Positions 36,244 through 61,454 of a DNA stretch of 64,000 nt are shown one piece after another (position 1 is the first letter of the stretch; each line of letters opens with the position of its first letter). The stretch is taken from assembly GCA_963785725.1 (NCBI GenBank), contig CAWAWS010000007.1, forward strand, positions 320,001-384,000, written 5' to 3'. The translations under genes and the position numbers were made by a program. A model generated the notes under the pieces. The model was not told where the DNA came from and did not search any database. It saw only the letters and a program-made list of their open reading frames with translations. The stretch is from an uncultured delta proteobacterium. GTDB lineage: Bacteria; Myxococcota_A; Polyangia; Palsa-1104.

Positions 36244-37356
36244 ATGATCGGCTTCCTCGAAGAGCGGCACATCGCGTTGCGCTATCGCGCGCAGGCTTGG
36301 GTCGACGCGGCCGGGCTGGAGAATGACCACGATCCGGCCGAGCTCGTCGCGCGGCTGGCGCGTCACGAGCTCTTGCGCGCCTGCGTGCCGGCGGCGTACG
36401 GCGGCCTGCGCGAGCGCGTCGAATTGCGCGACTTGTGCGTGCTGCGCGCGGTCATCGGCTATCGATCGTCGCTCGCCGACACGATGTTCGCCATGCAGGG
36501 CCTCGGCAGCTATCCGGTGACGCTGGCTGGCACCGAAGCGCAGAAGCAGGCGCTCTTGCCGTCGGTGGCGAATGGTCAAACCATTTGCGCGTTCGCGATC
36601 ACCGAGCCGGAAGCGGGCAGCGACGTGTCGAGCGTCAGCACGCGCGCGGTCCGCGACGGCGATGGCTACGTCATCGACGGCGTCAAATGCTTCATCAGCA
36701 ACGCCGGGCTCGCGCACTCGTACGTGCTGTTCGCGCGCACGTCGGACGATCGGCATCGCGGCCTCACGGCGTTCCTCGTCGACGGCAAAGCCAATGGTTT
36801 AACCATTACGCCGACCGAGCTCATCGCGCCGCATCCCATCGGCACGGTGACGTTGCGCGGCGTGCGCGTGCCGGCGTCGGCGCGCGTGGGCGAGGAGGGC
36901 CAAGGCTTTCAGCTGGCGATGGCGACGCTCGATTTCTTCCGCACGTCGGTGGGCGCGGCGGCGTTGGGCATGGCGGCGCGCGCGCTCGACGAAGCCAAGG
37001 CGCGCGTCAAGGCGCGGCGGCAGTTCGGCAAGGCCCTGAGCGAGTTTCAGGGCACGCAGATCGCGCTCGCCGACATGGCCGTCGACGTCGCGGCGTCGCG
37101 GCTGTTGGTGTTCTCGGCGGCGCAGCGCATCGACGGCGCCGATCAGCCGGGCAGCGTCGACGCGGCGATGGCCAAGCTGTACGCGACGGAGGCGGCGCAG
37201 CGCGTCGTCGATCGCGCCGTGCAGCTATTCGGCGGGCAAGGCGTGGTGGCCGGCTGTATCGTCGAGCGGCTCTATCGGGAAGTGCGCGCGCTCAGAATTT
37301 ACGAGGGCACGAGCGAGATCCAAAAGCTCGTCATCGCCAAGGCGCTGCTGCGCTGA
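36244..37356 (+). CDS. Acyl-CoA dehydrogenase
   Basis: [44 protein letters not shown]. Confidence 0.95.
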
Positions 37357-37475
37357 AACGCGCGGTCCACGGGCATTTACGCGACAGTCGACACGCGGCG
37401 GGCGCGCAGGGCGGGCGCGCGCATCGGGCGACTGCGCTCGGCAGCGTGCTCGTCGGGGCGTCCGACGCGACATTC

Positions 37476-37682
37476 GACGGCATGCATCATCGCTGGTTCG
37501 GCGCGGAATGCGACGGCGTGCACTATCGCGCGGTCGGCGCAGAATGTGACGGCATGCGCCATCGCGTGTTCGGCGCGGAATGCGACGGCATGCGCGATGG
37601 CGCGTTCGGCGCGGAATGCGACGGCATGCGCGATGGCGCGTTCGGCGCGGAATGCGACGGCATGCGCGATGGCGCGTTCGAC
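37476..37682. repeat. 36-bp tandem repeat, about 5.5 copies
   Basis: Unit GGCGCGGAATGCGACGGCATGCGCGATGGCGCGTTC; the last three copies are identical. Confidence 0.92.
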
Positions 37683-37820
37683 GAGCAAGCGACGGCCTAT
37701 TTGCTGCTCGGCTCGGTCGCGCATCCGACGGGGGCGTTCGATAGCGCTGTCGCGCTGCGCGGATCGCGATAAATTACAGCTCGCGGCGCTGACGCGTTCG
37801 CAAAGGGAATGGTTCAACCA

Positions 37821-38186
37821 ATGCCGCATTACGAGAAGCACGTCTTCATCTGCACCAACGAGCGCGACAAAGACAACCCGAAGGGCGACTGCGCGCGCCG
37901 CGGCTCCGACGACATTCGCGACGCGTTCAAGAAGGGCATTCACGAGCGCGGCTTGAAGGGGCGCATGCGTGCCAACGCGGCCGGCTGCCTCGACCAGTGC
38001 GCGTTCGGGCCCACCGTCGTCGTCTATCCCGAGCAGGTTTGGTACTCGGTGCCGACGCGCGCGGACGCCGAGGAGATCATCGAGAAGCACTTGGTCGGCG
38101 GTGTTCCCGTCGAGCGGCTGCTGTTGCGCACGAACAAGGACAAAGAGCAGGACAAAGCCGGCAAGGAAGGCAAAGAGCCCAAATGA
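37821..38186 (+). CDS. Thioredoxin-like [2Fe-2S] ferredoxin
   Basis: HVFICTNER...DCARRG...AGCLDQCAFGPTVVVYPEQVWY. Confidence 0.93.
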   Translation: MPHYEKHVFICTNERDKDNPKGDCARRGSDDIRDAFKKGIHERGLKGRMRANAAGCLDQCAFGPTVVVYPEQVWYSVPTRADAEEIIEKHLVGGVPVERLLLRTNKDKEQDKAGKEGKEPK

Positions 38187-38437
38187 AGAAGCCGCAAATT
38201 CTCGTCGGTGTGGCCGGGCTGGCGCTCGGTCTGTTGCTCGGCGGCGCGTTCATCGGTCGCGCGCATGCGCAGCAGCCGGGCGCACGCTTTCAGTACATGT
38301 GCCAGACGAAGCTGAACAAAATCTGGACCCCCGAAGCGCAAGCCAGGCTCAACGAGCTGGGAAGCCAGGGCTGGCAGCTCTTGCCCACGCGCAGCCCAAT
38401 GAACGAGGACGTCTATTGCTACGAGCGTCGCTTCTGA
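38183..38437 (+). CDS. Small exported protein, DUF4177-like
   Basis: Signal peptide ending AHA; ARLNELGSQGWQLL motif; ATGA overlap with the ferredoxin stop. Confidence 0.7.
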   Translation: MKKPQILVGVAGLALGLLLGGAFIGRAHAQQPGARFQYMCQTKLNKIWTPEAQARLNELGSQGWQLLPTRSPMNEDVYCYERRF

Positions 38438-38485
38438 ATGGTTTAACCAATCTTCGGATTGGTTAAACCACTCGTCGCTGCCGTC

Positions 38486-39961
<1,476 letters not shown>

Positions 39962-39978
39962 AGGGAATGGTTAAACCA

Positions 39979-41520
39979 ATGACAACGCCAAGTGAGACGA
40001 CGTTTCAGCCGCAATTCCCCGAGCAGTTCAACATGGCGCGCTACTTCCTCGACGCGCGGATCGAAGAGGGGCGCGGCGATCACGTCGCCATCATCGACGA
40101 CAGCGGGCAGTACACCTATCGCCAGGTGCAAGCGATGGCGAATCAGGTGGGCAACGCGCTGACGGCGATGGGCGTGGGCGTCGAAGATCGCGTGCTCATC
40201 GGGCTCTTCGACAGCGTCGAGTTCGCGGCGGCGTTCTTCGGCATCTTGAAGATCGGCGCCGTCGTGACGATGGTGAATCCCGAGCTGCCCGACGGCGATT
40301 ATCAGCACTACCTCGACTACACGCGGGCGCGCGCGCTCATCGGCGACATTGGTTTGACCAATCGCATTGCGCCCATGATCGAGAGCTCGAAGCTGTTGCG
40401 CGGCGTCTTGAGCGCCGGCGGAAATTGGGCGGCGAAGGTCGGCGGCGCGTCGACGGAGCTCGTGAACTTCGACAGCTCCAAGGACGATCCGTCGGTGTGG
40501 CTGTTCACGTCGGGATCGACGGGGAAACCGAAGGGCGCCGTGCATCTGCAGCATGATTTTGCGTACAACACCGAGTGCTACGCCAAGCCGGTGCTGAAGA
40601 TGCGCGCCGACGACGTGACGCTCGGCGTGCCCAAGCTGTTCTTCGGCTACGCGACGGGCAGCGACTTGATGTTCCCGTTTGCCGTCGGTGCGACGGCCGT
40701 GTTGTTTCGCGAGCGGGCGACGCCGGAGAAGGTGCTCGAGCTGTGCGCCAAGCACCAGGTCACGGTGCTGACGAGCGTGCCGACGATGATCAACAAGATG
40801 GTGCAGGCGGTGGGCGGCAAGCGTTCGCTGGCGCCGTTGCGCGCGGTGATTTCGGCGGGTGAGGCGCTGCCGGCCGAGCTCTATCACCGCTGGATGGAGA
40901 CGTTCGGCGTCGAGATCCTCGACGGTATCGGGTCCGCCGAGCTGTTCCATATTTACATCACGAATCGACCGGGCGAGGCCAAGCCGGGGTCGCTCGGGCG
41001 CATCGTGCCCGGCTACGAGGCGAAGATCGTCGGCGCCGACGGCAACGTCGTCCCCGACGGTGAAATCGGCACGCTGTGGGTCAAGGGCGACTCGGCGGCG
41101 ATCTGCTATTGGCAGGCGCACGAGAAGTCCAAAGAGGTGTTGCGCGGCGATTGGGTCGTGTCGGGAGACCTGTTTCGGCGCGACGGTGAGGGCTACTATT
41201 ATTATGCCGGCCGCGCCGACGACATGCTGAAAGTGGGCGGCATTTGGGTGTCGCCGCTGGAGGTGGAGTCGTGTTTGCTGCGGCATCCGAACGTGCTGGA
41301 GGCGGCGGTCGTCGGCTACGAGGATGACGACGGGCTGGTGAAGTCGTTGGCGTTCGTGGTTCTGCGGGATGCGACGGCGTCGGACGAGCTGGCGCGCGGG
41401 ATTATCGAGCACGCCAAGAGTCAGCTCGTGCATTACAAGGCGCCGCGGAAGGTGGAGTTCGTGGCGGCGCTGCCGCGGAGTGACCGGGGGAAGATCCTGC
41501 GGCGCGAGCTGCGGACGTGA
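39979..41520 (+). CDS. Benzoate-CoA ligase family protein (probable anthranilate-CoA ligase)
   Basis: LFTSGSTGKPKG, PKLFFGY, LDGIGSAE, GRADDMLKVGGIWVSPLEVE. Confidence 0.9.
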   Translation: MTTPSETTFQPQFPEQFNMARYFLDARIEEGRGDHVAIIDDSGQYTYRQVQAMANQVGNALTAMGVGVEDRVLIGLFDSVEFAAAFFGILKIGAVVTMVNPELPDGDYQHYLDYTRARALIGDIGLTNRIAPMIESSKLLRGVLSAGGNWAAKVGGASTELVNFDSSKDDPSVWLFTSGSTGKPKGAVHLQHDFAYNTECYAKPVLKMRADDVTLGVPKLFFGYATGSDLMFPFAVGATAVLFRERATPEKVLELCAKHQVTVLTSVPTMINKMVQAVGGKRSLAPLRAVISAGEALPAELYHRWMETFGVEILDGIGSAELFHIYITNRPGEAKPGSLGRIVPGYEAKIVGADGNVVPDGEIGTLWVKGDSAAICYWQAHEKSKEVLRGDWVVSGDLFRRDGEGYYYYAGRADDMLKVGGIWVSPLEVESCLLRHPNVLEAAVVGYEDDDGLVKSLAFVVLRDATASDELARGIIEHAKSQLVHYKAPRKVEFVAALPRSDRGKILRRELRT

Positions 41521-42017
41521 CGGCGGCGGGCGCGGGGTTCGCGGCGGGCGCGGGGTTCGCGCGAGGCGCTCGGGGCGCGACGTTGGCGGCGGATGAGGCG
41601 ACGTGCGCGATGTTCGCAACAGGCGAGACGACGTGCGCGATATTCGCGGCGGCTGGCGCGATGTTCGCGACATGCGAGGCTCGGGGCGCGACGTTGGCGG
41701 CGGATGAGGCGACGTGCGCGATGTTGGCGGCAGGCGAAATGACGCGCGCGATATCCGCGGCGGCTACGGCCATGGGCATGTTGTTCGCGGCTGGCGAAAC
41801 AACGAGCGCGACGTTCGCGATGTTCGCGTCCCGGCAACCGACGGTCGCGATGGTCGCGGCAGGGGAGTTCGCGCGAGGCGGCGCGGCCGTCATGTTGGGC
41901 GCGGAGCAGGCGCTCGAAGGCGCGTCGGCGACGCGCGCCGACGGTGCGTTCGCGAGGCGCGCGACCGCGCAATGCGCGTCGGCGACGCGCGCGACCACCG
42001 CTCGAGCCGACGCGTGA
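41517..42017 (+). repeat. Degenerate ~30-bp tandem repeat region forming an open low-complexity ORF
   Basis: Recurrent GCGACGTGCGCGATGTTCGC units; the ORF overlaps both neighbours by GTGA. Confidence 0.7.
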
Positions 42018-42772
42018 GGCGCCTCGGCGAGCTGACCTGGCCCGAAGCCGAAGCCCTGCGCGCGCGCGAGCCGATCATGCTCGTGCCGATCGGCTCCACC
42101 GAGGCGCACGGCCCGCACTTGCCGCTGGCCACCGACACTATCTTGTCCGACGAGCTGGCGCTGCGCGCCGCCGCTGCGCTCGAAGCCGACGGATACGCCG
42201 CCGTCATCGCGCCCGCGCTCGCCTACGCCATCACCGACTATGCCGGCGATTTCCCGGGCACGATCTCGCTGACCGCTGCGACCGCCGTCGCAGTTTTATC
42301 GGACATCTGCAGCTCGCTCATCGGTCGCGGCTGGCGTCGCGTCTGCCTCGTCAACAGCCACCTCGAGCCGGCGCACGTGACGTCGCTGAAGGACGCTTGC
42401 GCGCAGGCGTTCGCGCGCACCGGCGTCAACGTCGCGTTCGCCGATCAGCTCGATCGGCGCTGGGCGCGCACGCTGACCGACGAGTTCAAGCGCGGCGCCT
42501 GCCACGCGGGAAGCTACGAGACGTCGCTGGTGCTGGCGGCGCGACCGGAGCTCGTACGCGACGAGCTGCGCCGCGGATTAGTGGTTAAACCAATCGACCT
42601 GGCCAAGGCGATGCGCGAAGGCAAGCGGACGTTCATCGAGGCCGGCGCCGACCAGGCGTACTTCGGCGACCCGGCGGGCGCTACGGTTGAAGAGGGCAAC
42701 GACATCTACGCGCGGCTGGTGGTCATGGTCGTCGAGACCGTGCGCGCCGCGTGGCCAATCGAGAATGGTTAA
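42014..42772 (+). CDS. Creatininase-family amidohydrolase
   Basis: LGELTWPE, PIGSTEAHGPHLPLATD, VNSHLEPAH, HAGSYETS. Confidence 0.92.
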   Translation: MRRLGELTWPEAEALRAREPIMLVPIGSTEAHGPHLPLATDTILSDELALRAAAALEADGYAAVIAPALAYAITDYAGDFPGTISLTAATAVAVLSDICSSLIGRGWRRVCLVNSHLEPAHVTSLKDACAQAFARTGVNVAFADQLDRRWARTLTDEFKRGACHAGSYETSLVLAARPELVRDELRRGLVVKPIDLAKAMREGKRTFIEAGADQAYFGDPAGATVEEGNDIYARLVVMVVETVRAAWPIENG

Positions 42773-43412
42773 ACCAATTTCGAAATTGGTTTAACCATTC
42801 AGTGGGCGTTCGCGCGACCGACTTCGGAAGCGATCCACGTCGAGCGACGAAATCGATGCGCGAGCCTGCTTCCTCCACGTTCAATCGACGATGGGTGAAG
42901 TCGAGGTCGACGCGCCCGAGATGGGTCGGATAGTTCGTCTCGGCGTATCGACCTGTCTCGGCGTATCGATCGGACTCAACACGCCGATTCGGTATCGGCT
43001 GGGAACGCCAGACGGTGGGAACGCCGACGGAATGCCGAGACGGGTCGGCACGTCATGAGAGACATGCGGCGAGGCGGGGCTTTAAGTTTCAGCCGGGGCC
43101 GGCGCGACGGACCGATTCGGTGTGGCGAGACAGCCGAATTCGGTGCGGGCAGATTCGACGCAACCAACTCATCGGCGCTACCAACTCATCGGCACGTTGA
43201 CACCGATCGGGCAGCCGTAATGGAGTCCGTGCGCCGAGACTGATTCGTGCGGCGAAGTCGAGTCTCGCGCCGCTCCGCCGCGACTCTGCCCGCTCCGATG
43301 GAGCCGAGAGCCAGAGCGCGCCTGACGATGAGAATGCCGTCGCCGCGCTGAGCATAATGGTTAAACCAGTCCTGGAATTGGTTTAACCATTCGGCGGGCG
43401 TTCCCGCCAGCG

Positions 43413-43796
43413 CTACTTGCCTTCGGCGCTGCTTCCCTGCGCGGCCGCCATCTGCGGCGAATCCGTCACCGGACGGCGGTGCCAGTGCGGAACGTGGAAC
43501 TGCCACGCGTGCCCGTCGTAGACGTACTGCGCGCGCACGTACTCGTAGCCCGACTTGCCGGTCACCCAGCGACCGTCTCGCCACACGTGGTGACCGTCGA
43601 TGAAATCCCAGTAACCGGCGACCCAGATCGATCCCGGCGACGGGCAGGGCGTCTTCACTTCCGACTTCGGCTCGGGCGGCTGGTTCGGCACTTCGACGAC
43701 GAGCGTCGGCGTTGTAGAAGACGTCTGCGTCGTTACGGCGGCGCAGCCGAAAGCGGAGAGCGAGAGGCAAAGAGCGATGGAGCGCGTGATGTTCAT
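43413..43796 (-). CDS. Lipoprotein with YXWGXW/WXXGXW repeats
   Basis: Lipobox AFGC; CPSPGSIWVAGYWDFIDGHHVWRDGRW...FHVPHW. Confidence 0.82.
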   Translation of the reverse strand: MNITRSIALCLSLSAFGCAAVTTQTSSTTPTLVVEVPNQPPEPKSEVKTPCPSPGSIWVAGYWDFIDGHHVWRDGRWVTGKSGYEYVRAQYVYDGHAWQFHVPHWHRRPVTDSPQMAAAQGSSAEGK

Positions 43797-43809
43797 GCGT
43801 GCGAGCTAG

Positions 43810-43825
43810 AGCAGAAGCCGTGCCA
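43810..43825 (-). promoter_or_regulatory. Sigma54 promoter of the YXWGXW lipoprotein gene
   Basis: Minus strand TGGCACGGCTTCTGCT (GG-N10-GC), ending 13 bp before ATG 43796. Confidence 0.75.
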
Positions 43826-43978
43826 CGAGTCGCGCGAGCGCTGCGTCAATCAACCCGCACGCTTGCATGGGACTGCGCCGACCAGATCGGGAAGTACACA
43901 CCCACCTACTGGGGTAAGTAGCCACCATCATTGGGAAACCGGAGTAGCTAAGCTTACGTTAGATGCAAGCGGGTGGGG

Positions 43979-44017
43979 TGAATGAGCGCTCATTCAAAAT
44001 GAGTGAGGGCTCATTCA
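43979..44017. promoter_or_regulatory. Tandem 18-bp palindromic operator/enhancer pair
   Basis: Perfect TGAATGAGCGCTCATTCA (43979-43996) and variant TGAGTGAGGGCTCATTCA (44000-44017), 21 bp offset. Confidence 0.75.
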
Positions 44018-44209
44018 GTGGGCGTTGGCGTGCTTACACAAGATGCAACAGGCGGTCGCGGCAAGGTCCGGCGCGCGGGTGCATCGTCGGCGATGTGCTC
44101 GAGTCGATCGCTTATTCACGCGCGAGCCGTGAGCCGTGCGCAGCGCCCAAATCGAAGCGAGCGCCTGAACCGAAGATTGGTTGAACCACGCGTAGCCAGC
44201 AGCGTTGCT

Positions 44210-44800
44210 TCCGAGTCGTGCGCGCGAACCGAGGAAGCGAGAGATCGTGGCGCGCGTTACGCGGGTCGCGGTTACGTTGTGCGCGTACACCGAGGCGCGA
44301 GAAATCGCGGCGCGTAGCATGCGCTGGGGCTCGAAGTGGAGTTGTGCGAATAGGTCGAGGAGACCAGAATCGTCGCGGGCGTTGCGCGGGCCGCGGCTGG
44401 AAGTGGAGTTGTGCGCGTGGACCTAGAGCGGGAGAAATCACCGCCGCGTGCGCGCGCGACTGATCGAGAGTGAATCGTGCGCGAGAGGCTGAAGAAATCG
44501 CGGCGCGTTGTGCGCGCGCGACGGATCGGGATGGAGTCGTGCGCGAGAGGCTAAGAGAGCGCGGCGCGTTACGTGCGCGACGGATCGGGACGGAGTCGTG
44601 CGCGAGAGGCCGAAGAAATCGCGGCGCGTTACGCGCGCGATCGAGATTGAGTCGTGCGCGAGAGGCTAAGGAATCGAGCCGCGCTCTGCGAGCGACGGAT
44701 CGGGATTGAGTCGTGCGCGAGAGCCTGAAGAAATCGCGCTGCGTCGCGCGTGCGGCGGACGCGCTTGAGTCGTGCGCGCGAGCCGAGGGCTGAAGAATCG
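44210..44800. repeat. Degenerate ~58-60-bp tandem repeat
   Basis: Unit approximately GAGTCGTGCGCGAGAGGCTGAAGAAATCGCGGCGCGTTACGCGCGCGACGGATCGGGA; clear copies near 44474, 44534, 44594, 44650, 44709, 44768. Confidence 0.88.
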
Positions 44801-45162
44801 CCGCCACACTGCCCGTGCGACGGTCGATGGCCGAGTCGTGGAGCGCCGAGCGTTCGGGAGTCGCCGCCGCATGGCCCGTGCGGCTGGTCGAGACTGCGTC
44901 GTGTGCGTGAACCAGCGCTCGGCGAATCGCGCCGCCCTCGGATTCGCCCGCCGCGTCGAGCTGCGGCGGAGCCCGACGAATCGGTCTGAATTGCCTCTCA
45001 GAGGCCGCGTCGAATCGGCCCGTGTCCACGTTCGGCGCGGCACGCCGCGCCTCCCGCCAGGTCGCGTGGTCGAGCTACGCGAAGTACCGCGCGACCGCGT
45101 CGAATCGGCGCGTCGAGCTGCGTTCGTTCCGTCCGACGCGGCATTCCGCGCGCGTGGTCGAG

Positions 45163-49696: not shown

Positions 49697-49885
49697 CGCG
49701 AGCGCCGATCGACTATCGCCGAGCCCCATTTCGCCGACGGCAAGTGACGCGAGCACCGACCGACTATCGCCCAGCCCCATTTGCCGCTGGTGACGGCGCG
49801 AGCACTGATCGGCTATCGCCCAGCCTCGTTTGCCGCTGGTGACGGCGCGAGCACTGATCGGCTATCGCCGAGCCCCATTTCGTCG
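49675..49885. repeat. ~50-bp tandem repeat (about 4 copies) starting in the last codons of the PLP gene
   Basis: CCATTTCGCCGAYGGCAAGTGACGCGAGCRCCGAYCGACTATCGCC recurs at 49675 and 49726, followed by two diverged copies. Confidence 0.88.
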
Positions 49886-50042
49886 CTAGCCTGGAGATTG
49901 GTTAAACCAATCGGCGCGCCATTCCTGCTGTGGGGTGCGACACGTCAGCGGCACTCTGGCGAGATCCAGCAAGCCGAGATCTGCGCCGTACGGACGGTTC
50001 GGCGCCCGGCCCAGCTGAGCTCCAGCGCAATCCAGCCGAATT

Positions 50043-50726: not shown

Positions 50727-50944
50727 TGGTTAAACCAATCGCAGCAGAGGGTTGAATCGATCGACACCACGGATCTCTTGACCGGCGCAAGGGTTAAGCC
50801 GATCCGCGCAGCGGATCAAGCAGTCGGCGCAATGGTTAAACCAATCGGCGCAGCGGATCAAGCCGGAGCGGATGGTTAGCCAATCGGCGCAATGGTCGAC
50901 CGAGCGGCACACCGTTGGAGCGATCCGCCCGTGGTCGACCACCG

Positions 50945-51070
50945 GGCGCAATGGTTAAACCAGTTGGCGCAATGGTTAAACCAGTCGGCGCAATGGTTAA
51001 ACCAGTTGGCGCAATGGTCAAACCAGTGGGCGCAATGGTCGAACCAGTGGGCGCAATGGTTTAACCAATC
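50945..51070. repeat. Six head-to-tail 21-bp units, each carrying one palindromic site
   Basis: GGCGCAATGGTTAAACCAGTT x6 with small variations; further degenerate units at 50785-50940. Confidence 0.95.
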
Positions 51071-51848: not shown

Positions 51849-53275
51849 CGTACAGGGCCGGTGGAGCGTCGGCAAGATCGGCGGATGGTCCGCGCGCGGG
51901 CAGGCACATTGTCCGACGCGCGAGCACATGGGCGCGCGTCGGCGATGGTCTGTGCACGGCGGAGGAAGCGCGCAGCGAAGTCGCGCGTTGGCTGCGCTGC
52001 GCGGTTTCGTCGGTAGCGAGGTGGTCGAACGGCTTCGTCGGTGGCAAGGCCTGGGAGGTTTCGTCTGGCGAGGCGGCCGACAGTTTTGTCTATCGCGAAG
52101 GACGCGGAACGGCTTCGTTAGTGACTAAAGCCGTCGGCGGCTCACCGGCGGCGATGGCTGCAGCCGGCCTCGTCGGTGTCGATGGCCACGGCTGTAAGGA
52201 TTGACAAGGCGATGCTGCAGCCGGCTTCGTCGGTGTCGAGGCGCGGCTACAGGATTGACGGTAGCTCGCTTCGCCTCTCCCACTCTACGGCAGGCCGTCG
52301 ACGACTGCCGCCGATCCGTCGCTGTCTTGAACGCCCACGTTCGTAGTGCGCTCCCCAATCGCGTTCGCGTGTCCGCTATGCGTGTCGACAAAAAGCCATG
52401 GCGCTGGATATTCCGGCGGCGTCATCGACCAGCCAGCGTGTCAAAGAGCCACCAGCATGCGAACATTCGGCCACGTTTATCGACGGGGCTGGCGTTTCGA
52501 AGCGCGCTACTGCGCGAACATTCGGGCAGCCGTTGTAGACGAGCGCGAGTCGAGAAACGCAGCGGTACGCGCTTAGCTCGAGTAGCCTTCGTCGACAAGC
52601 GAGTCTGTCGAAGAATGCACCCATTCTGCTCGCGGTTTTGACGAGTGAGCGTGTCGAAAGCGCGCTGACTCGCGAGCATTCGGGCGGGCGTTGTCGACGA
52701 GCGGGCGTTCGAAAGCTCGGTGGCGCGCACACTTGCGAGCGGCGTTCGTCGATGTCCGCGCCGGTCGAGAAACTGCGCGGTCGCCATCGTCTGCCGCAAT
52801 CGTCATCGAACCAGGTGAATCCCAATAGCGCTGGCAGTCTGCCGCGCTTTTCCAGCGGTCGAGCGCCTCCCGATACTGGAAGGCGCGCGGCGATTGTAAC
52901 CGCGGCCGATCGATCGTCGATGATGACGACGATTGTCCGACATCGCCCACCCGATTTCGCGCGTCACCAATCGTGAATCCCGCCGCGCGCTGCGACCCTT
53001 GCGCGCGGACGAACGTCACAGTGGTTTGACCTTTCTCGCTTGACTTCATATTGGCCGGCCGTAGAGTTGAAGGTGACTCATCGAGCGCCGCCGCGATTTC
53101 ACCAGTAAGGGCCGCGCGCGCGGATTTACGAGCGCGAAATAAAGGGTACACCCCTCCACCTCTAGTCGCAGCCCTCGCCTCGGCGACGGCAATAACGACG
53201 AACGGCAATGTCGCGAAGGCATATTTGGCCTCGCAGACGAAATCGGAAAACGGATTCAATAGGAGATTGATCGGA

Positions 53276-54157
53276 ATGTCGAAACCGAATTACCGCGCCA
53301 CCCTCATCTTCGATACCGACCGCAAAGTCTTCCTCGCCCGCGCTCCCGAGCTGGAGCATTGCAGCGCCGAAGGCGCCAACCGCGCCGAAGCCCTCACCAA
53401 GCTGGAAGAAGAGATCGACGCGCAGCTGGCCAACATGCTGTCGCACGGCTCGACGCCGCCGCGCGCGGTCGACGAAGAGGTTTTCACGGGCGAGATCGCG
53501 GCCAAGGTTTCGAAGCAGCTCCATCGTGAGCTGGCGTTTCAGGCGCGTTCGGAAGGCATCGAGCTCGATCAGATCGTGGGCGAGCTGTTGGCGGCGGCGA
53601 TGGAGTCGCGCAAGCAGACGCGCGGCACCCGCGGCGGCAATCGCGTCGCGCAAGAGCACACGCCGAACGACAACGTCGGCAATCGCTACGAGGGTGGCGG
53701 CGGCGGTGGACCGCGCCCGCAGCGCGGATTCGGCGGACGCGGCGCGAACAACCACTTGCTCGACGATCGCGCCAACTTCATCGAGTACGTGCGCGGGCTC
53801 GAGCAGCAGGGCACTGGTATGACCAATCGTCACGGCGGCGGCGGGCACGGCCAGCCGCGCGGCGACGGCGACCGCGGTGGACGCGGTGGACGCGGCGGAC
53901 GCGGTGGACGTGGCGGCGCCGGCGGACCGCGCGGCGGCAACCCGAGCCATGGCGGACAGAATCGCGGCATGCAGGGCGGCGGTCCGCGTCCGCAGGGCAA
54001 CTTTGGCGGCGGGCACGGCGGCGGCGGCGCGGGCAACGGCGCCGGCGGCAATGGTCACGCGGCGGCGGGCAACGGCGCGCATCACGCGGAAGCGAGCGCG
54101 GCGCCGCAGCACCACGACGCGCCGGCGCACGACCCCGAGTCGGGCGGCAACGTCTAG
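53276..54157 (+). CDS. HicB-like protein (HicB N-domain + ribbon-helix-helix) with a long Gly/RGG-rich tail
   Basis: AGGAGA RBS; FLARAPELEHCSAEGANRAEALTKLEEEI; FTGEIAAKVSKQLHRELAFQARSEGIELDQIV; GGRGGRGGRGGRGG. Confidence 0.82.
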   Translation: MSKPNYRATLIFDTDRKVFLARAPELEHCSAEGANRAEALTKLEEEIDAQLANMLSHGSTPPRAVDEEVFTGEIAAKVSKQLHRELAFQARSEGIELDQIVGELLAAAMESRKQTRGTRGGNRVAQEHTPNDNVGNRYEGGGGGGPRPQRGFGGRGANNHLLDDRANFIEYVRGLEQQGTGMTNRHGGGGHGQPRGDGDRGGRGGRGGRGGRGGAGGPRGGNPSHGGQNRGMQGGGPRPQGNFGGGHGGGGAGNGAGGNGHAAAGNGAHHAEASAAPQHHDAPAHDPESGGNV

Positions 54158-55155
54158 TCAGCGAGAGCGCGCGGCTCGCTAGCTGTGATGTCTAAACACA
54201 GCCAGCTGCGCCTTCCGACACCAAACGCAACCTCGACGATTTCGTCCGCTCGCGCGTAAACAAAGCTCGCGCAGTCAATAACGGCTGAACGCAACACGCC
54301 TCGAGCGGTTCCTCTGCTCGCGACGCATGAACGTTCGCGTGGCCGATCGTGGCCAAACCCAAAGTTTCGATCGGCTGCTCCTGTTCGCAATTCCGAAAAC
54401 GCTCGCGCGGCCGATCGTGGCCAAAGACAAACGCGTTTCGAGCGATGCCTGCTGTCGACGACCGTATAAACGTTCGCATGCCGATCACGGCTAAAAGCAA
54501 CGCGTCTCGATCGATTCCTGCTGCTCGCGACTCGACGAGGTTCCCGCGGCCGTCGCGGCCAGCGCAATGCGTTCGCTCGATCCTTTCGGCTCGCGAAGCG
54601 CTCGCACGGCCGATTCGACATAGGGCTCAGCTCGGCAACCCTCGCTTCGCGTTTCCCCGACGTTGTGCGCGCATCGCCGGCACATTCGGCCACGCTTCTC
54701 AGCGCTTGATTTCGATTCGAGCCGCTGTGTTTTTTGCAGCGCACTCCGACGGCGAACGAAGGCGTCGCCCGTTCCAGTTGACGTAAATCCGCGCACGAAG
54801 CGACAGCGAACGAGACGGTCGGCGCGCTGATTTTCCACGCGCGCCGAAATTGGTTAAACCAATTTCGGCACGAAGCAGCCGCGCCTCCGCGAGCGCCACG
54901 TCGAGCAGCGAAGTCCCAGTCGATCCCGAATCTCGACTGCCGCGGATTTGCGAGCGCGCCGGCGCTCGGCCCGGCCGACGTTGCGGCCGCCGGCGCTCGG
55001 CCCGGCCGACGTTGCGGCCGGCGTGCCGGCCCCTCGACAACTGCGCCCAATCTGCACGCCGTCGGCAACGTCCGAGGTCGCTGCGTGACCCAAATCGCCA
55101 CCAAGATCGATTGGTTTGACCAATCGGGACCACGCGCGTGTGATACAATGTTGTC

Positions 55156-57060
55156 GTGGCGACCGAGTCTCCGCCGTCATTCGTGCCCAGCACGTTTGGC
55201 CGCTATCAGCTACTGGAGCGTCTCGCCGTCGGCGGCATGGCCGAGATCTTTCGCGCGCGGCAGTCGGGCGCGCACGGCTTCGAGAAGATCCTCGTCATCA
55301 AGCGCATACTTCCGCACCTCGCCGCCGATCCCGAGTTCCTCGCTATGTTCATCGATGAGGCCAAGCTGCAGTGCGCGCTGCAGCATCCGAAGATCGTCCA
55401 GGTCTTCGAGTTCGGCGAGGTCGACGGGCAATATTACATCGCGCTCGAATACGTCGACGGCATGGACGCGCTCGGCCTCTTGCGCGTCTGCGCCCACCGA
55501 CGACAGCGACTGCCCGTGCGGCTCGCCGTCCACATCGCCTGCGAAGTGCTCGACGCGCTCGATTATTCGCATTCGCAGCGCGGCGCCGACGGTCAGCCGC
55601 TCGGCATCGTTCATCGCGACGTCTCGCCGTCGAACGTCTTCATCTCCCGGCGCGGCGACGTCAAGCTAGGCGACTTCGGCATCGCGCGCGCGACGGAAAA
55701 GCAGCGCCAATCGAAGACGCAGGCCGGCACGCTGAAGGGCAAATACGGCTACATGGCGCCCGAGCAGGTCATCGGCGGCAACATCGACGGGCGCGCTGAC
55801 CTCTTCGCCGTCGGCATCGTGCTCTGCGAGATGTTGATGGGCCGCCGCCTCTTCACCGCGCCCAACGATCTCGACGTGCTGCTCATGGTCCGCGACGCGC
55901 GCCTCGATAGGTTGAACCGCTACGGCGGCGACATTCCGCCGGCGCTGCGCGCGATTCTCGATCGCATTCTCGCGCGCGATCCCGAAGATCGTCAGCCGAC
56001 GGCCGGCGCGCTGCGCGACGAGTTGCAGGAGTTCCTCTTCGATTCCCGTCAGCGCGTCAGCGCCGGTGATTTAGGTGCGTTCCTCGATTCGTTGAAGGAG
56101 CGCGCGTCATCGCCGTCGGTGCAGATCGTCAAGGAGGATTCGGGCCTCATCCTCGTTGGTGAAGATACGCGCGCCAAGCAGGCCGAGGCCGAGCGCAATC
56201 GTCTGGCCATTCGCGAGGCGTCGAAGCAGCCGTCGATCGTTTCGCACGCGATGCAGCTCGAGGAGTCGGGCCCGTTCATCGAGGAGGCGTCGTCGCCGAA
56301 GCAGAGCCCAGACGGCGCCGAGCGCACGCCCGTCGAAGAGGTTCAACCAGCTGACGCCAAGGGTGAGTTCGCGGACGTCTCGGCCGTGCGCCTCTTGGCG
56401 CGCCTCGCCGCCGATCGCGAAACGGGGCAGCTCGTCATCGAGCGCGGGCAGGTGTCGAAGGAGATCTTCCTCGTCGATGGCGCGCCCGAGTTCGTTTCGT
56501 CCAACGTTCCCACCGAGCGCTTCGGCGAATATTTGGTCGCGCGCGGGGTCATTTCCGCCGGCGAATTATCGATGGCGCTGGCGATTTTGCCGCGCTTTCA
56601 CGGCAAGCTCGGCGATACGCTGGTCGGGCTCAGCTTGCTGCGGCCGCTCGAAGTCTTCCGTCATTTGACGCGGCAAGTGCGCGACAAGATCATCGACGTC
56701 TTCGGCTGGCCGTCGGGGCGCTTTCGCTATTACCGCGGGCGCATGAATAACCGCGAGTCGTTTCCGCTCGGGCTGGACGCGTTCGAAATCCTGGGCGCGG
56801 GCGTGGCTGGCTTGCCGCTCGAGACGGTGCGCGCACGGCTCGACAAGCTGTCGCAGCAGCGGGTGCGACGGATCGATCGCGCGCGGCCGACGCCCGAGCA
56901 TTTCCGCGTCGGCGCCGGTCCACGCGAGCTGTGGCAGCGTCTCGACGGCAAGCGGACCGTGGGCGAGTGGATGCGCCGCTACGATCAGCCGGAGCAGCTG
57001 CTGACACTCTGCCGCACGCTGTTCCTGCTGATCGAATCCGACCTGGCCGCGCTCGACTAA
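55156..57060 (+). CDS. Ser/Thr protein kinase with C-terminal DUF4388-like domain
   Basis: LAVGGMAEIF, VIKRI, HRDVSPSN, DFG, YMAPE; C-terminal ETGQLVIERGQVSKEIFLVDG...WPSGRFRY. Confidence 0.95.
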   Translation: MATESPPSFVPSTFGRYQLLERLAVGGMAEIFRARQSGAHGFEKILVIKRILPHLAADPEFLAMFIDEAKLQCALQHPKIVQVFEFGEVDGQYYIALEYVDGMDALGLLRVCAHRRQRLPVRLAVHIACEVLDALDYSHSQRGADGQPLGIVHRDVSPSNVFISRRGDVKLGDFGIARATEKQRQSKTQAGTLKGKYGYMAPEQVIGGNIDGRADLFAVGIVLCEMLMGRRLFTAPNDLDVLLMVRDARLDRLNRYGGDIPPALRAILDRILARDPEDRQPTAGALRDELQEFLFDSRQRVSAGDLGAFLDSLKERASSPSVQIVKEDSGLILVGEDTRAKQAEAERNRLAIREASKQPSIVSHAMQLEESGPFIEEASSPKQSPDGAERTPVEEVQPADAKGEFADVSAVRLLARLAADRETGQLVIERGQVSKEIFLVDGAPEFVSSNVPTERFGEYLVARGVISAGELSMALAILPRFHGKLGDTLVGLSLLRPLEVFRHLTRQVRDKIIDVFGWPSGRFRYYRGRMNNRESFPLGLDAFEILGAGVAGLPLETVRARLDKLSQQRVRRIDRARPTPEHFRVGAGPRELWQRLDGKRTVGEWMRRYDQPEQLLTLCRTLFLLIESDLAALD

Positions 57061-57345
57061 GATTGGTCGAACCAATTCTCGGCTTAGGGTTGGTTAAACC
57101 AATTCTCGGGCTGGGATCGGCCCAGCCGCGCTCCGACCAACAGGATCGGTTGGGATTGGTTAAACCAATTCTTGAGCTGGGAACGACCCGACCGCGCTCG
57201 GCTACGATTGGTTAAACCAATTCGCATTTGTCTGGAACCGGCGAGTCCGCGTAAGGATGAGCGCGGATTGGTTAAGCCAATTCGCATTCGTCTAGGACCT
57301 GCCAACCTGCCTGCCGGCAAGCGCGGATTGGTTAAACCAATTCGC
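57048..57345. repeat. Cluster of six palindrome-bearing repeat units between convergent genes
   Basis: GATTGGTTAAACCAATTC-like cores at 57062, 57089, 57155, 57207, 57267, 57327; the last three have a 60-bp period. Confidence 0.9.
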
Positions 57346-57381
57346 GACCGGTAAGTTTGGCTTGGCCGGCGGTTGTCGGCG

Positions 57382-58311
57382 CTATTCGTTCGCTTTGGGC
57401 CAGCCGACGAGCGAGCGCAGGGCGGCGGCTCGGTCTTCCGGCAGCGGCGCGGTCAATGTCGTGCGCGCTCCCGTCGTTGGGTGCGGGAACGTGATCGCCG
57501 ACGCGTGCAGGAAGTGGCCGCTCGTGCCCACCGCCGCCGCCGGTCCGCCGTACAGCGCGTCGCCGACGATGGGAAAGCCGGCGTGCGCGAGGTGCGCGCG
57601 AATCTGGTGCATGCGTCCGCTGGCCGAGCTCGCCTCGACGAGCGCGACGCCGTCGCCGCGCGCCAGCGTCCGGTAGCTCGTCGTCGCCGGCTGCGCGTCG
57701 ACCTGGCCGGCGATGGCCGCGCGCACGCGCTTGCCGGCGTGCGCCAACGCGACGTCGACGAGGCCGCCGTTAGGCGGCACGCCGGCGACGAGCGCCAAGT
57801 ACTCCTTGGTGACCGCACCGTCGCCGAACGAGTGGCGCAAGCTGAGCCACGCGGCGCGCGTGCGTCCGGCGAGCACGAGACCGCTCGTATCGCTGTCGAG
57901 CCGATGGGCGACGCCGCCTTCGCGCACGTCGTCGGCCACGCCGCCGCACTCCGCGTAACGCGCCACGAGCGCGTTGGCCAACGTGCCGCGCTCGCCCGCC
58001 AGCAGCGGATGCGTTGCCACTCCCGATGGTTTAACCATTGCCACGATCGCGTCATCGACGTGCACGATGACAAGCGGCAGCTCGGGCTCGGGCAGCGGAC
58101 GCTTGTCGCCGGCACGCGGCGGCTCGGCGTCGACGCGCACGCTGGCACCGCCGCGCACGCGGGATCCCTTCGTCGCGCGGGCGCCGTCGAGGCGCACGAC
58201 ACCGTCGGCGATGAGTCGCTGCGCGTCGCGGCGCGAGCAGTCGAGCGCGCGCGCCAACCATTGATCGAGACGCGCGCCGTCGTCGGCGTCAGCGACGGTG
58301 AGAGTGCGCAC
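57382..58311 (-). CDS. RluA-family pseudouridine synthase with S4 domain
   Basis: RLDQWLA, KPSG, HRLDSDTSG, KEYLALV, GRMHQIRAHL..GFPIVGDALYG, LHAS. Confidence 0.95.
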   Translation of the reverse strand: MRTLTVADADDGARLDQWLARALDCSRRDAQRLIADGVVRLDGARATKGSRVRGGASVRVDAEPPRAGDKRPLPEPELPLVIVHVDDAIVAMVKPSGVATHPLLAGERGTLANALVARYAECGGVADDVREGGVAHRLDSDTSGLVLAGRTRAAWLSLRHSFGDGAVTKEYLALVAGVPPNGGLVDVALAHAGKRVRAAIAGQVDAQPATTSYRTLARGDGVALVEASSASGRMHQIRAHLAHAGFPIVGDALYGGPAAAVGTSGHFLHASAITFPHPTTGARTTLTAPLPEDRAAALRSLVGWPKANE

Positions 58312-58315
58312 GCGC

Positions 58316-58882
58316 TCAGTCGGTGAAGTCGGCGGCCGCCGAGCGGCGTCCACAGAGCGCCAGCAGCACGAGCGGGAAGGGCGAGTAGAGCAGGATCGTC
58401 AATAGCAGGGTCCCCATCGACTGCGTGCTCTGCGCCAGCTGCAGCGTCGCCGGATCCGACGCCATCACATCCTTCATCACGGCTGCGGTGCGCGGAATGA
58501 TGATGCTCACCATCACGAGCGCTTCCACGAACGTGAACAGCAGCGCCAGCGCGCCCCAGCCGAGCGCGCCCGAGCGGCTCCAGCGCCGTCGCTGATACAG
58601 CCCGCAACCGATGACGATGAGCGCGATCGACAAGGCCAGCTTGCCACCGGTCAGCGCGTCGCTGTAGGGCGCCACCTGATGCATTGCCTCGGCCGTTCGC
58701 GCCATGACCAGCGCCGGATCGGGTTGGCCCGGCCGCTGCGGCAGATTCTTCATCAGGGTGCCCATATGCCCGAAGAGCGTCGGGCTCAGGGCACTCACGG
58801 CGAGCTTAAAGACGTTCGAAAGCGCCACCAAGCTACCGAAGACGATCGATAGAATGCCGAGCGTGACAGGCGTCCTGCGCAT
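58316..58882 (-). CDS. Hypothetical 4-TM membrane protein
   Basis: Four hydrophobic segments; lies 4 bp upstream of rluA on the same strand. Confidence 0.75.
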   Translation of the reverse strand: MRRTPVTLGILSIVFGSLVALSNVFKLAVSALSPTLFGHMGTLMKNLPQRPGQPDPALVMARTAEAMHQVAPYSDALTGGKLALSIALIVIGCGLYQRRRWSRSGALGWGALALLFTFVEALVMVSIIIPRTAAVMKDVMASDPATLQLAQSTQSMGTLLLTILLYSPFPLVLLALCGRRSAAADFTD

Positions 58883-59327
58883 CCGCGGAGTGTACTACTA
58901 AATTGGTTTAACCATTGCTCGCACCGTCGGACATGCGCGCAGCGCAGTTGGCTCGACGCTTCGTGATCGCCCGCACGTTGCAGCAGCGCTGGCCATTGAC
59001 GTCTTGATGCGACGTCGCAGCGGAATCGGCGCGACGGCAATGGTTAAGCCAATCCTGCGACGTGGGCAGAGGGGCGCGTCCGCAAAGCCAATCGTCAACC
59101 ATGCTGCGCTTCGTCTATGTCGACCGACCGCCATCCTCGCCTTGCGCACTGCGAGATGGCGCTTGGCGTACTGCCGCGCGTGGTTAGCGGAGCGTGACGC
59201 AGCCGCCTCGAGCTCGCGATTCTATTGATCTGCATTGTTGGCCAAGCTCGTCGAGCACTGCCACTACCGCCGATGTCCACTCGAGCACGAGGCGAACGTC
59301 TCTGCTTCGGGGCGAATGGTTAAACCA

Positions 59328-61454
59328 TTACGGTCGGCCGTCGGACGGTGGCGGCTTCGGCAGCGCCGGCGACGTCGCCGGCACGTCGACGCCTTCGGCC
59401 GCGCGCGCTGCGTCGTCGACGATCGGATCCCTCGGCGTCGAAGGTTCCTTGGCCGCGTCGACGACGTCCTTACTGCCGTGCGTCGCTTCGTTCACCGCCG
59501 CCTCGCCTTTCGCGTCGCTCTTCGCGCCGTCTTTGCGCCCGTCCTTGCTCTCGGTGCGCCCATCGTCCGCGCCCTCGTCGTCGACGTCATCTTTGCCGAC
59601 GTCCTTCGTGTCGGGCGCGGCGCCGCCAGGCGTGAGCGCGCAGGCCGCCTTCGCCTTCTCCGCCGCCGTCATGGCGATATAGACGGTCAGCTTTTGCCCG
59701 ACGACCAAGTCCGTGTGCGCCGCGCCGAAGCGGTTGATACGCTCGAGATCGGGCACCGTCAGCTTGAAGCGCGCTCCAATCTTTTTCATGTCGTCGCCCT
59801 TCTTGACGACGTAAGTCAGCCGCTTTCGCCCGCGCCGCGCCTCGACGAGATCGAAGAATTCGGGCGAGCCCGTCGTCACGACGCGAACACGCGCCGGATC
59901 CACCAACGCCGCCTTTGACTGATCGAAATCGGTCGGCACCCACAGCTGCAGCACCATGTTGCTGACCAGCTTCGCGTCGAGATCGATGTTGTTCCAGCGC
60001 GCCAAATCGATTGGTTTGACCTTGAAGAAGCCGGCGATGTCGGCCGGCAGGTCCATCGGCAGCGTGCGATAAAAGACACGGGTTTTGCCGGCGACGACCG
60101 CGTCTTTGTCGGGCACGGCGACGATGAGCGTGTCGCACGGCGGCGGCGGCAGCGGCTTCTTGCCCTCGGGCGCGAGCAGCGTGAGCCCCGGGCGAATCTC
60201 GGCGCTGTCGTCGACGCCGTTGAGCACGCGCAGCTCGTGCGCCGACACTCCGTGCGCCGCCGCGACGTCATCGAGCCGCTCGCCGAAGCGCACGACGAAT
60301 GGTTTAACCAATTCTCGATTGTGTTCGAACGCGGCCGCGAACTTGGCGCCGCTGCCGCGCGGCAGCCGAATCTCCCACGGCTCGGGCGGCGTGCGCTTGC
60401 GGCGCAGCTCGGGATTGAACGACGCGACTTCGGCTGCCGTCACGCCGGCCGCATGCGCGATCGCGGCCACGCTCATCGACGACGGCACGCTCACGCGATC
60501 GAACGCATAGGGCGCATCGGGCTGCACGCCGTCGAAGCCGAAGCGCGCGCGGTTGGCGTCGACGAGCGCCGCCGCCATCACCTTCGGCACGTACAGCGTC
60601 GTCTCCCACGGCAAGCCGTCCTCGTGCTCGCACAGCTCCCAGTAGTCGTTCGTGTTGTATTTCTGCATCGCGCGAATGACCGCGCCATAACCGGCGTTGA
60701 AAGCCGCCAACGTCAGCGGCCAGGCGCCGAAGCGCTGCTTCAAATCGCCGATGTAGTGGACGAACGCCGCGGTCGCCTTCTCTGGATTACGCCGCTCGTC
60801 GATCCAATAATCCTCGCGTAACCCGTAGATCTTCCCGCCTTCGGGCATGAACTGCCACAGCCCGACGGCGCCCGCGTGCGACAGATCGAGCGGATCGTAG
60901 CCGCTCTCGATCATCGAAATATTGACGAGCGCCAGTGGCAGATGCGCGCGGCGCAGCGCGTCCTCGAAGAACGCTTTCCAGCGCCCTTCTTTGCGCAGCC
61001 ACGTGTTCATGATCGCGTGTCCGCGATGGTCCGACTTGTAGAACTCGAGATAGCGCACGACATGCGGATCGAAACGGATCGGCAAATCAGGCAGCTTCAG
61101 CTGATCGAGCCACGGGATCGCGGGTGCCACTTCGATTGGTTTAACCAATTCGCGCACCGGTGAACGCAGCGCAGCCGGCAGCGTGTCGGGACCGATGCCG
61201 TCGGGCAGCGGCGACACTTGGCGACCGAGCGATCCGTTCTCGTCGACGACGTTGGGGACGATGAGCGGGCTCGATTGCGCCGCGGGAAACGATTGCTCGT
61301 CGAACTCGCGCAGTTGACGCAGCTCGTCGGTCTCGTGCGAGACGTCGACGGGCGCGCCGCGGACCGCGCGACGGCCGATGGGATTCTCCGGGAGCGGCGG
61401 ATTCGCCCAGGCCGGCGCCGCCGCCAACAAGAGCACGAGGGCCCAGCGTGGCAT
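59328..61454 (-). CDS. MltD-like lytic transglycosylase (SLT + LysM domains)
   Basis: MIESGY, AVGLWQFMP, AAFNAGYG, ETTLYVPK; LysM-like YVVKKGDDMKKIG. Confidence 0.93.
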   Translation of the reverse strand: MPRWALVLLLAAAPAWANPPLPENPIGRRAVRGAPVDVSHETDELRQLREFDEQSFPAAQSSPLIVPNVVDENGSLGRQVSPLPDGIGPDTLPAALRSPVRELVKPIEVAPAIPWLDQLKLPDLPIRFDPHVVRYLEFYKSDHRGHAIMNTWLRKEGRWKAFFEDALRRAHLPLALVNISMIESGYDPLDLSHAGAVGLWQFMPEGGKIYGLREDYWIDERRNPEKATAAFVHYIGDLKQRFGAWPLTLAAFNAGYGAVIRAMQKYNTNDYWELCEHEDGLPWETTLYVPKVMAAALVDANRARFGFDGVQPDAPYAFDRVSVPSSMSVAAIAHAAGVTAAEVASFNPELRRKRTPPEPWEIRLPRGSGAKFAAAFEHNRELVKPFVVRFGERLDDVAAAHGVSAHELRVLNGVDDSAEIRPGLTLLAPEGKKPLPPPPCDTLIVAVPDKDAVVAGKTRVFYRTLPMDLPADIAGFFKVKPIDLARWNNIDLDAKLVSNMVLQLWVPTDFDQSKAALVDPARVRVVTTGSPEFFDLVEARRGRKRLTYVVKKGDDMKKIGARFKLTVPDLERINRFGAAHTDLVVGQKLTVYIAMTAAEKAKAACALTPGGAAPDTKDVGKDDVDDEGADDGRTESKDGRKDGAKSDAKGEAAVNEATHGSKDVVDAAKEPSTPRDPIVDDAARAAEGVDVPATSPALPKPPPSDGRP

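Follow-up and report, generated by a model that had tools for sequence, protein, structure and literature searches.

The stretch analysed here, referred to as the window, comprises 64,000 nucleotides from an uncultured soil myxobacterium, recorded as a delta proteobacterium of the lineage Palsa-1104 (assembly GCA_963785725.1, contig CAWAWS010000007.1, positions 320,001 to 384,000 of the forward strand). Its over-represented word, TGGTT[AT]AACCA, belongs to a 15-base palindrome with the full consensus AWTGGTTWAACCAWT, copies of which are gathered in a dense patch, here called a cloud. The cloud extends over gaps and coding sequences and contains the gene of a GntR regulator with a predicted FadR-like fold, the likely binder of the palindrome. 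The source genome, an 8.9-Mb assembly of 47 contigs, is denoted G000; G001-G004 are congeners, and G010 and G012 belong to the same family. Genes were called with an own hexamer model, and frameshift errors in the assembly mean that some were missed or shortened. The matrix used for finding sites was built from the 109 exact cores of the assembly and applied with a hit threshold of >12 bits. The features are listed in Table 1.

Exact cores occur 34 times in the window, none of them outside the interval 36795-62333. Across the whole assembly, contig C7 has 64 of the exact cores, C33 has 24 and C39 has 21, with no core on the remaining 44 of the 47 contigs. Every one of the 109 falls in one of four clouds with sharp limits, which measure 12-33 kb each and 83 kb in total (about 1% of the genome) and carry about 160 sites at a density of 1-2 sites per kb. 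Matrix hits number 163 in the three regions examined and 3 outside, and there are 96 perfect sites in the clouds and none in the 8.81 Mb outside; because it was the sites that defined the cloud limits, these inside and outside counts of strong sites are partly circular, which the cross-species tests are not. No depletion of the motif was seen outside the clouds, where its counts are in line with those of 24 scrambled palindromes. The sole strong site outside the clouds (26 bits, G000:C20:273113), possibly a true lone operator or the seed of a cloud, lies just upstream of a gene whose start we take to be aconitase-like. Among 301 genomes of the class, relaxed matches number 22-123 in six (G000-G004 and G012), 7 in G007, 6 in G010 and at most 5 in the other 293. 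The clouds are real and not an assembly artefact: the congeners have them, and short-read contigs from other soil runs retain the arms of both acyl-CoA dehydrogenase sites.

An earlier note on this DNA had described about 17 sites within coding sequences between 36571 and 61149. The span is exact (from 36571-36585 to 61135-61149), and the count is 16 of the 46 matrix sites of the window, taking those centred in called coding sequences. Genome-wide, 53 of the 162 cloud sites lie inside called coding sequences, with 8 more in a gene whose start was called too late. The several frames mentioned in the note proved to be all three, with 9, 24 and 20 of the 53 coding sites, and orientation shows no strand bias and no relation to transcription (16 TAA versus 13 TTA). 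All the peptides it named are present, namely ANGLTI, NGLTNS (twice, in the GMC gene), VVKPID, ELVKPI, ELVKPF, DWFNHC, QWLNQ and, at 58025, MVKPSG. Of the four codons that it called uncommon, TTA (0.8% of leucine codons outside the clouds), GTT (2.8% of valine) and CCA (2.4% of proline) are so, and AAA is less rare than implied (20% of lysine).

The sites in coding sequence far exceed chance. In 61 cloud genes, 46 internal sites were counted, against a mean of 2.0 and a maximum of 5 in 60 resamplings with genome codon usage, and a mean of 2.2 and a maximum of 5 in 100 permutations of the clouds' own codons, so that the codon-shuffling check suggested earlier gave about 20 times the expectation. 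Peptides able to encode the perfect 15-mer occur 25 times in 20,477 cloud residues, where 0.15 are expected, and 18 times in the 2,381,525 residues outside. Weak sites with 3, 4 and 5 mismatches are also in excess in the clouds (27, 26 and 84 versus 0.34, 3.25 and 25.6 expected), and this continuum fits stepwise gain and decay.

The comparison with relatives, in which the window region is syntenic in G001-G004, G010 and G012, points the same way. For 32 internal sites of G000 an orthologue could be aligned, and 16 of these sites are private, 11 patchy and 5 common to all aligned sequences. Orthologues lacking the site were available for 27 sites; at 25 of these, all such orthologues differ in one residue or more, and at 23 in two or more; high-scoring segment pairs below 60% identity were dropped from this test, which hid the RluA site of G012. 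Orthologues without the site thus differ in residues and codons, as the alignment proposed in the note was meant to reveal. Judged from the sequences, selection on the DNA alters protein sequence in cloud genes; the earlier claim to this effect is borne out by both the orthologue comparison and the codon-shuffled count. Site residues disagree with those of site-lacking orthologues in 58% of cases, other residues in 28.5%. Even among the site-lacking relatives alone, site positions vary more (44% versus 26% mismatch), and the sites therefore favour tolerant positions. The protein cost is probably modest, because most sites fall at positions that already vary. In the RluA-family gene the usual vNKPxG motif does read MVKPSG at 58025, as noted earlier, but the asparagine is not fixed in the group, reading S, A, A, D, N and E in relatives and paralogues, and valine stands there only in G000 and G012, the two genomes with the site. 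No excess of in-frame insertions was found in cloud genes (4/46 versus 3/38, p 1.0), in a count whose start and identity filters missed the insertions of the radical SAM, M1 peptidase and sulfatase genes. The insertion in the M1 peptidase (G000:C33:59677-61758) is rich in Ser, Ala and Asp, exceeds 100 residues and has no counterpart in the congeners.

Clouds 1-3 are found at the same genes in the congeners. Cloud 4 is present only in G000, with 0 sites in the syntenic stretches of G001-G004 (8-20 kb each) and of G012 (partly syntenic). It covers genes for TPR, ATP-grasp, radical SAM and YggX proteins, a permease and a phosphatase, whose residues are changed at the G000 sites (for example EAMVKPFDA versus EAARAPFDA, and PKLVKPFRV versus PALPRPFRV), and its radical SAM gene carries eight sites within a 160-residue in-frame insertion built of ELVKPI-type repeats. 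In clouds 1-3, the congeners share the rare A/T-ending codons of G000 at 118 of 211 site positions versus 811 of 3806 off-site positions; in cloud 4 they do so at 2 of 32 site positions versus 75 of 590 others. On this comparison of syntenic sequences, cloud 4 was born in the G000 lineage. Turnover is visible elsewhere as well. MetH lies inside cloud 3 and has a site in G001-G004, whereas in G000 it lies outside the cloud and has none, although the G000 copy is 57% identical and possibly not a strict orthologue. G012 has no cloud 3 among the sites listed, its cloud 2 extends over uvrD and the MoxR/Bat operon, and further sites stand at its pilus-ATPase locus; a cloud over mreB in this genome was rejected, the locus being the MoxR/Bat operon. 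The copy number forms a series from 0-2 per distant genome through 20-50 in the congeners to about 160 in G000.

Neighbouring sites are paired at a fixed distance. The distance is 21 bp for 35 of 49 short spacings in G000 and for 22 of 23 in G001-G004 and G007, and 20 bp for 18 of 21 in G012, inside genes as well. In the relatives, divergent, convergent and tandem gaps carry 5.2, 6.2 and 7.2 sites per kb, without preference for promoters. A preference for convergent gaps was considered and rejected, being strong in G000 and absent in the relatives; in G000, short gaps are occupied in 10 of 10 convergent versus 6 of 12 divergent cases, and convergent gaps have a median of 540 bp in clouds versus 53 outside. 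The gene content of the clouds is unrelated and has no functional theme.

The gene at 47773-48570, which the earlier note did not name as the likely binder, encodes a protein of 265 residues with PF00392 and PF07729 above cut-off, corresponding to an N-terminal winged helix and an FCD domain. Among 40 relatives, close orthologues were found in G001-G004, G010, G011 and G012. The 21-bp pair covers the regulator's own ATG in G000-G004, G010 and G012, and the G000 protein starts with MVKPI. The palindrome also stands at the gene start in 9 of 29 distant orthologues of the phylum and in 5 of 6 metagenome orthologues examined, and the footprints of distant orthologues are often paired and adjoin a GMC gene; the paralogous GntR genes show the TGGTTNAACCA form at 0 of 22 loci. 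A metagenome search for the regulator locus returned mostly distant GntRs on short contigs. The 16 distant genomes, chosen partly for the footprint, have 0-2 sites each. Since the palindrome stands at the gene start in distant orthologues and is this scarce in their genomes, an ordinary autoregulatory operator is taken as the ancestral state, and the pair at 48557..48592 is likely this original operator. The GMC operon at 45163..47116 is likely the ancestral target operon.

The predicted structure of the regulator (predicted local distance difference test 88) resembles FadR proper more than other GntR/FCD proteins (template modelling score 0.67-0.80, root-mean-square deviation 3.0-3.6), its best solved relatives being E. 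coli FadR, Vibrio FadR and an Rv0494-FadR chimera, at a sequence identity to FadR of about 19%. The putative operator near its own gene has TKGT and ACMA boxes 3 nt apart, which agrees at the sequence level with the rule TKGT-N3-ACMA given for the FadR subfamily in the part of PMC4494728 available, and the E. coli FadR box resembles the motif, as far as PMC9329746 was accessible; the accessible part of PMC7020754 contains no operator motif of Rv0494. Because of this fold and the phylogenetic footprint, the regulator is the candidate binder, and AWTGGTTWAACCAWT is likely its operator. FadR and Rv0494 are described as acyl-CoA-responsive repressors in the available portions of PMC9329746 and bioRxiv 10.1101/2025.09.25.678588, and going by the modelled fold, acyl-CoA gating was likely inherited by the regulator. 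A second GntR gene, G000:C19:148331-149032, is separated from dnaA by about 35 kb and from parS-like sites by 25 kb, and its orthologue in many genomes of the order adjoins the orthologue of the gene beside these sites.

The clouds of G000 also differ in base composition. With the sites masked, 49 cloud genes show a GC of 0.903 at fourfold sites versus 0.948 in 5835 others, and cloud 4 shows 0.886 versus 0.96-0.99 in the orthologues. On the G000 branch, change from G/C to A/T at fourfold sites amounts to 0.032 outside, 0.073 in clouds 1-3 and 0.107 in cloud 4; neither G-C swaps nor amino-acid divergence are raised in the clouds. Motif-like codons were rejected as the cause of the drop, as TTA, AAA and ATT are not raised once the sites are masked and the rise covers all rare codons of fourfold boxes; a signature of oxidative damage was rejected because the increase is common to all four kinds of G/C-to-A/T change. 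Tandem repeats in non-coding DNA, many of which lack the motif, take up 5-6% of the sequence in clouds 1-3 and 1.7% in cloud 4, and the 5-6% level is matched by 2 of 561 outside windows. Large non-coding stretches of the window (43780-45160, 51900-53270, 61440-62340 and 63000-64000) contain decayed tandem repeats with periods of 8-61, mostly without the motif and absent from the congeners.

Table 1. Clouds of the palindrome in G000 and features of cloud 1; positions are those of the window unless a contig is named.
Feature	Position	Strand	Remarks
Cloud 1	G000:C7 356.5-389.5 kb		window 36.5-69.5 kb
Cloud 2	G000:C7 421-436 kb		
Cloud 3	G000:C33 40.5-64 kb		
Cloud 4	G000:C39 304-316 kb		31 sites
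Window part of cloud 1, AWTGGTTWAACCAWT palindrome	36571..62345	.	46 sites; cloud continues to ~69500 (G000:C7:389.5 kb)
Coding site, acyl-CoA dehydrogenase, NGQTI	36571..36585	+	common to G001, G003; not in G002, G004, G010, G012
Coding site, acyl-CoA dehydrogenase, NGLTI	36793..36807	+	common to G001, G004
Weak coding site, OYE-family gene, QWLNQ	39033..39047	+	only in G000; 3-4 residues unlike all six orthologues
21-bp pair	39945..39980	.	covers OYE stop codon and start of benzoate-CoA-ligase-family gene
Coding site, benzoate-CoA-ligase-family gene, IGLTN	40348..40362	+	only in G000
Coding site, creatininase-family gene, VVKPI	42580..42594	+	common to G001, G002, G004
21-bp pair, perfect 36-bp palindrome	42764..42799	.	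over creatininase-family stop codon
GMC oxidoreductase and 134-aa partner, downstream of regulator	45163..47116	-	coding sites 45877, 46663, 47085
GntR/FCD regulator gene	47773..48570	-	Pfam GntR and FCD, FadR-like fold (predicted)
21-bp site pair over regulator's start codon	48557..48592	.	reads MVKPI
Coding site, PLP (pyridoxal phosphate) enzyme, DWFNHC	49383..49397	+	present in 4/4 congeners
Coding site, HAD phosphatase, MVEPL	50401..50415	-	
Intergenic tandem array, seven sites	50725..51069	.	includes 21-bp unit in ~6 copies
Six sites, expanded convergent gap between kinase and RluA-family genes	57062..57341	.	
Coding site, RluA-family gene, MVKPS	58025..58039	-	also G012 (MVKPF)
Coding site, MltD, ELVKPF	60298..60312	-	in 6/6 close relatives, 0/23 more distant orthologues
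Coding site, MltD, ELVKPI	61135..61149	-	common to G002, G003, G004

Within cloud 1, the benzoate-CoA-ligase-family gene has its site at residue 455 instead in three relatives, and site 46663 of the GMC operon lies within a 12-aa insertion that the congeners lack. Some arrays are recent, because contigs from two other soil runs, belonging to two other soil studies, skip 50741-51069 of the intergenic array. At 32940-42772, tryptophan dioxygenase, kynureninase, RidA-family, enoyl-CoA hydratase, acyl-CoA dehydrogenase, ferredoxin, OYE-family, benzoate-CoA-ligase-family and creatininase-family genes make up a cluster that resembles a pathway of tryptophan breakdown via an aromatic CoA ester. The gene at 53276-54157 encodes a protein of 293 aa without a Pfam hit, conserved in 6 of 6 relatives, with a low-complexity C-terminal half and an N-terminus for which HicB-like similarity is a lead only (score 0.78). 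This protein and the likewise unannotated one at 58316-58882 were rejected as markers of cloud-bearing genomes, both being present also in G010.

With moderate confidence, and judging from sequence and structural model, we favour the reading that the regulator acts as a cooperative, likely acyl-CoA-gated coat of whole domains. One dimer would bind one motif, and on a pair two dimers would sit side by side, two helical turns apart, a geometry suggested by the spacing alone. Sharp, movable domains need positive feedback in cis, of which cooperative occupancy is the simplest source; if occupancy were cooperative over a few kilobases, by pairs that bridge or cluster, a new site would pay only near existing ones. 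Domains would then grow denser and advance gradually, through point mutations where codons are tolerant and through tandem duplications in gaps and linkers, and lone sites outside them would be neutral. The coat would likely be released on binding of acyl-CoA. As for the output, which is the weakest step, the ligand-switchable coat might damp transcription through the domain as a roadblock, and the weaker GC pressure and the build-up of repeats may be side effects on recombination or replication. More tentatively, as a possibility rather than an expectation, a metabolic repressor may here have turned into a sequence-programmed, metabolite-switched bacterial chromatin protein whose heterochromatin-like domains nucleate and spread in cis. 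It is put forward with the same reserve that such domains may suppress recombination, collect repeats and rewrite proteins, and that new ones may arise within a genus.

Several observations weigh against the coat, besides the partly circular counts of strong sites. G007 has 7 sites and no regulator orthologue was found in its 51% complete genome, while G010 has the regulator gene and only 7 sites. The G010 regulator (L007:1492-2214) is without the 14 residues after MVKPI seen in nearly all other orthologues, and two trees disagree on whether G010 represents a loss or the state before the expansion; an rpoB tree for rooting was rejected owing to fragments and one misassigned row. The regulator misses the FadR equivalog cut-offs (NF003444, 44.4 versus 189 bits; TIGR02812, 42.2 versus 249 bits). 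Bridging might predict helical phasing, and a long-range phase of 10.6 bp seen in all-pairs distances was rejected, since it was lost with adjacent, non-duplicated distances (p 0.17 in G000 and 0.08 pooled). The sites are unoriented relative to transcription, and the clouds include thyA, folA, tatA and mltD, which are hard to imagine damped. Cloud proteins remain under normal constraint. The GC shift is absent in G012 (0.981 inside, 0.975 outside), small in G004 and smaller in the congeners, 8% of 8-gene windows elsewhere are equally GC-poor, and the repeats have built up only in G000, with no such excess in relatives.

The side effects named above are also what a non-adaptive drive would leave, in which bound protein shields DNA from gene conversion, repair or deletion and site alleles spread without benefit to the cell. 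In its favour, GC pressure is weaker while G-C swaps are unchanged, in keeping with reduced conversion, and G000 clouds accumulate tandem repeats both with the motif and without it; the gene content has no theme, and proteins are bent similarly by uptake sequences (PMC2817400, as far as available). However, a shielding site should gain most where no other is near, which would predict dispersal and not clouds, and no perfect site lies outside; G012 has a long cloud without a GC shift, and the fixed, lineage-specific spacing of 21 or 20 bp needs selection on geometry. We regard drive as unlikely. A titration sponge or antenna, in which surplus sites would keep repressor in reserve close to a few true operators and make an ordinary acyl-CoA switch sharper or more stable, is improbable to about the same degree. 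It would account for the position of cloud 1 around the regulator's own operon, for the acyl-CoA genes in each of clouds 1-3, and for the sites of G007, which look like a regulon of the tryptophan/CoA-ligase cluster, but a sponge needs no clustering, weak sites would be expected of an antenna although 96 of the sites are perfect, and cloud 4 has no evident target, its genes being site-free in congeners.

Chromosome anchoring or segregation sites of the Noc, MatP, RacA, RicO or parS type typically form dense clusters of palindromes that extend into coding sequence, and repressor folds have been co-opted for such tasks in SlmA and RefZ, so that the clouds might be sites of this kind, read by the regulator or another protein. 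We consider this quite improbable: the contigs of dnaA and the parS-like sites (C19) and of parB (C6) contain no copy of the palindrome, and a single 4-Mb contig of G002 carries dnaA and, at a distance of about 1.0 Mb from it, two clouds, which are thus neither at the origin nor opposite to it. The GC-skew signal was too faint and noisy for locating the terminus, and XerC/D positions were uninformative; a location at the terminus is unlikely from the 1.0-Mb distance in G002. Cloud number and place also differ between congeners, and RacA and RicO sites are spread over 600-700 kb according to the accessible part of bioRxiv 10.64898/2026.03.06.710092. The analogy drawn in the earlier note to uptake sequences and Noc/MatP sites accordingly holds for the bending of proteins, and neither for a genome-wide spread nor for a spread over the origin or terminus region. 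Hardly credible, finally, is an ordinary large regulon with chance coding sites, or an assembly artefact. In distant relatives the motif is probably an ordinary FadR-type operator, and G000 has frameshift errors, but there is no preference for promoter gaps, the excess over codon shuffling is 20-fold, and clouds occur in independent assemblies and short-read contigs. Codon shuffling, the site-free syntenic genes of cloud 4 and the gap densities largely refute this last explanation.

Compared with known systems, the regulator is a new member of a known family, and protein bending and multi-site repression are each already known; the arrangement, however, fails a defining feature of each system tested. 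Noc/NBS, MatP/matS and parS clusters are position-defined, chromosome-organising site sets. The clouds share with these and with RacA/ram and RicO/ricS, the latter two as far as their source was available, an independence of gene function, but such sets are tied to origin or terminus and mostly extend over hundreds of kilobases, whereas here patches of 12-33 kb lie away from dnaA and vary among congeners, and the candidate binder has a predicted FadR fold instead of the ParB, Noc or MatP folds. With FadR-type regulators (PDB 1HW1, 1E2X and 1H9T; Rv0494-FadR chimera 9WFI) the protein shares winged helix, FCD domain and their arrangement, and with FadR operators the site shares the TGGT-N3-ACCA palindrome; the N-terminus of the chimera starts with MVEP, one of the peptides that the motif encodes. 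E. coli FadR, however, has one or two sites per promoter in the accessible text of PMC9329746, as opposed to about 160 sites in four domains here, a third of them in coding sequence and without a tie to promoters or function. For an ordinary regulon, sites would stand upstream of linked operons; here gap types are equally dense and the genes unrelated.

Uptake sequences of Haemophilus, Actinobacillus and Neisseria likewise accumulate in coding sequence, raise the matching peptides and favour poorly conserved residues, but they are genome-wide and about double their tripeptides (Findlay and Redfield 2009, PMC2817400, in the part available), whereas the peptide excess here is about 160-fold in 1% of the genome and concerns a repressor-type palindrome in pairs of fixed spacing. 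Hundreds to thousands of copies across the genome would be expected of them, and all 109 cores lie in the four clouds. The stoperators of cluster A mycobacteriophages (L5) come close in that one repressor serves many sites in a unit of tens of kilobases. The available text of PMC9283540 gives more than 20 sites, many at gene junctions, with a proposed block of elongation, and describes stoperators as asymmetric, oriented with transcription, bound by monomers and tied to prophages. The sites reported here are instead palindromic, unoriented and placed over syntenic chromosomal housekeeping genes, in domains that appear and shift between species, and a search of viral contigs with the 21-bp pair gave 0 matches. 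In open-access text, no account of such clouds was found, although regulon-table supplements (for example of PMC4494728) could list the operator.

Bacterial repressors are thought to act at few promoter sites; here a probable operator has been multiplied in bounded patches within one clade of Polyangia. If the coat is real, the repressor would be a builder of switchable chromosome domains and not an ordinary gene regulator. The natural copy series bears on how ordinary regulators give rise to nucleoid organisers of the SlmA or RefZ kind, and on how far selection at the DNA level can overwrite protein sequence. With one protein of 265 residues, one 15-mer and a domain of 25-30 kb, it may also offer a small, clonable system for domain-scale coating.

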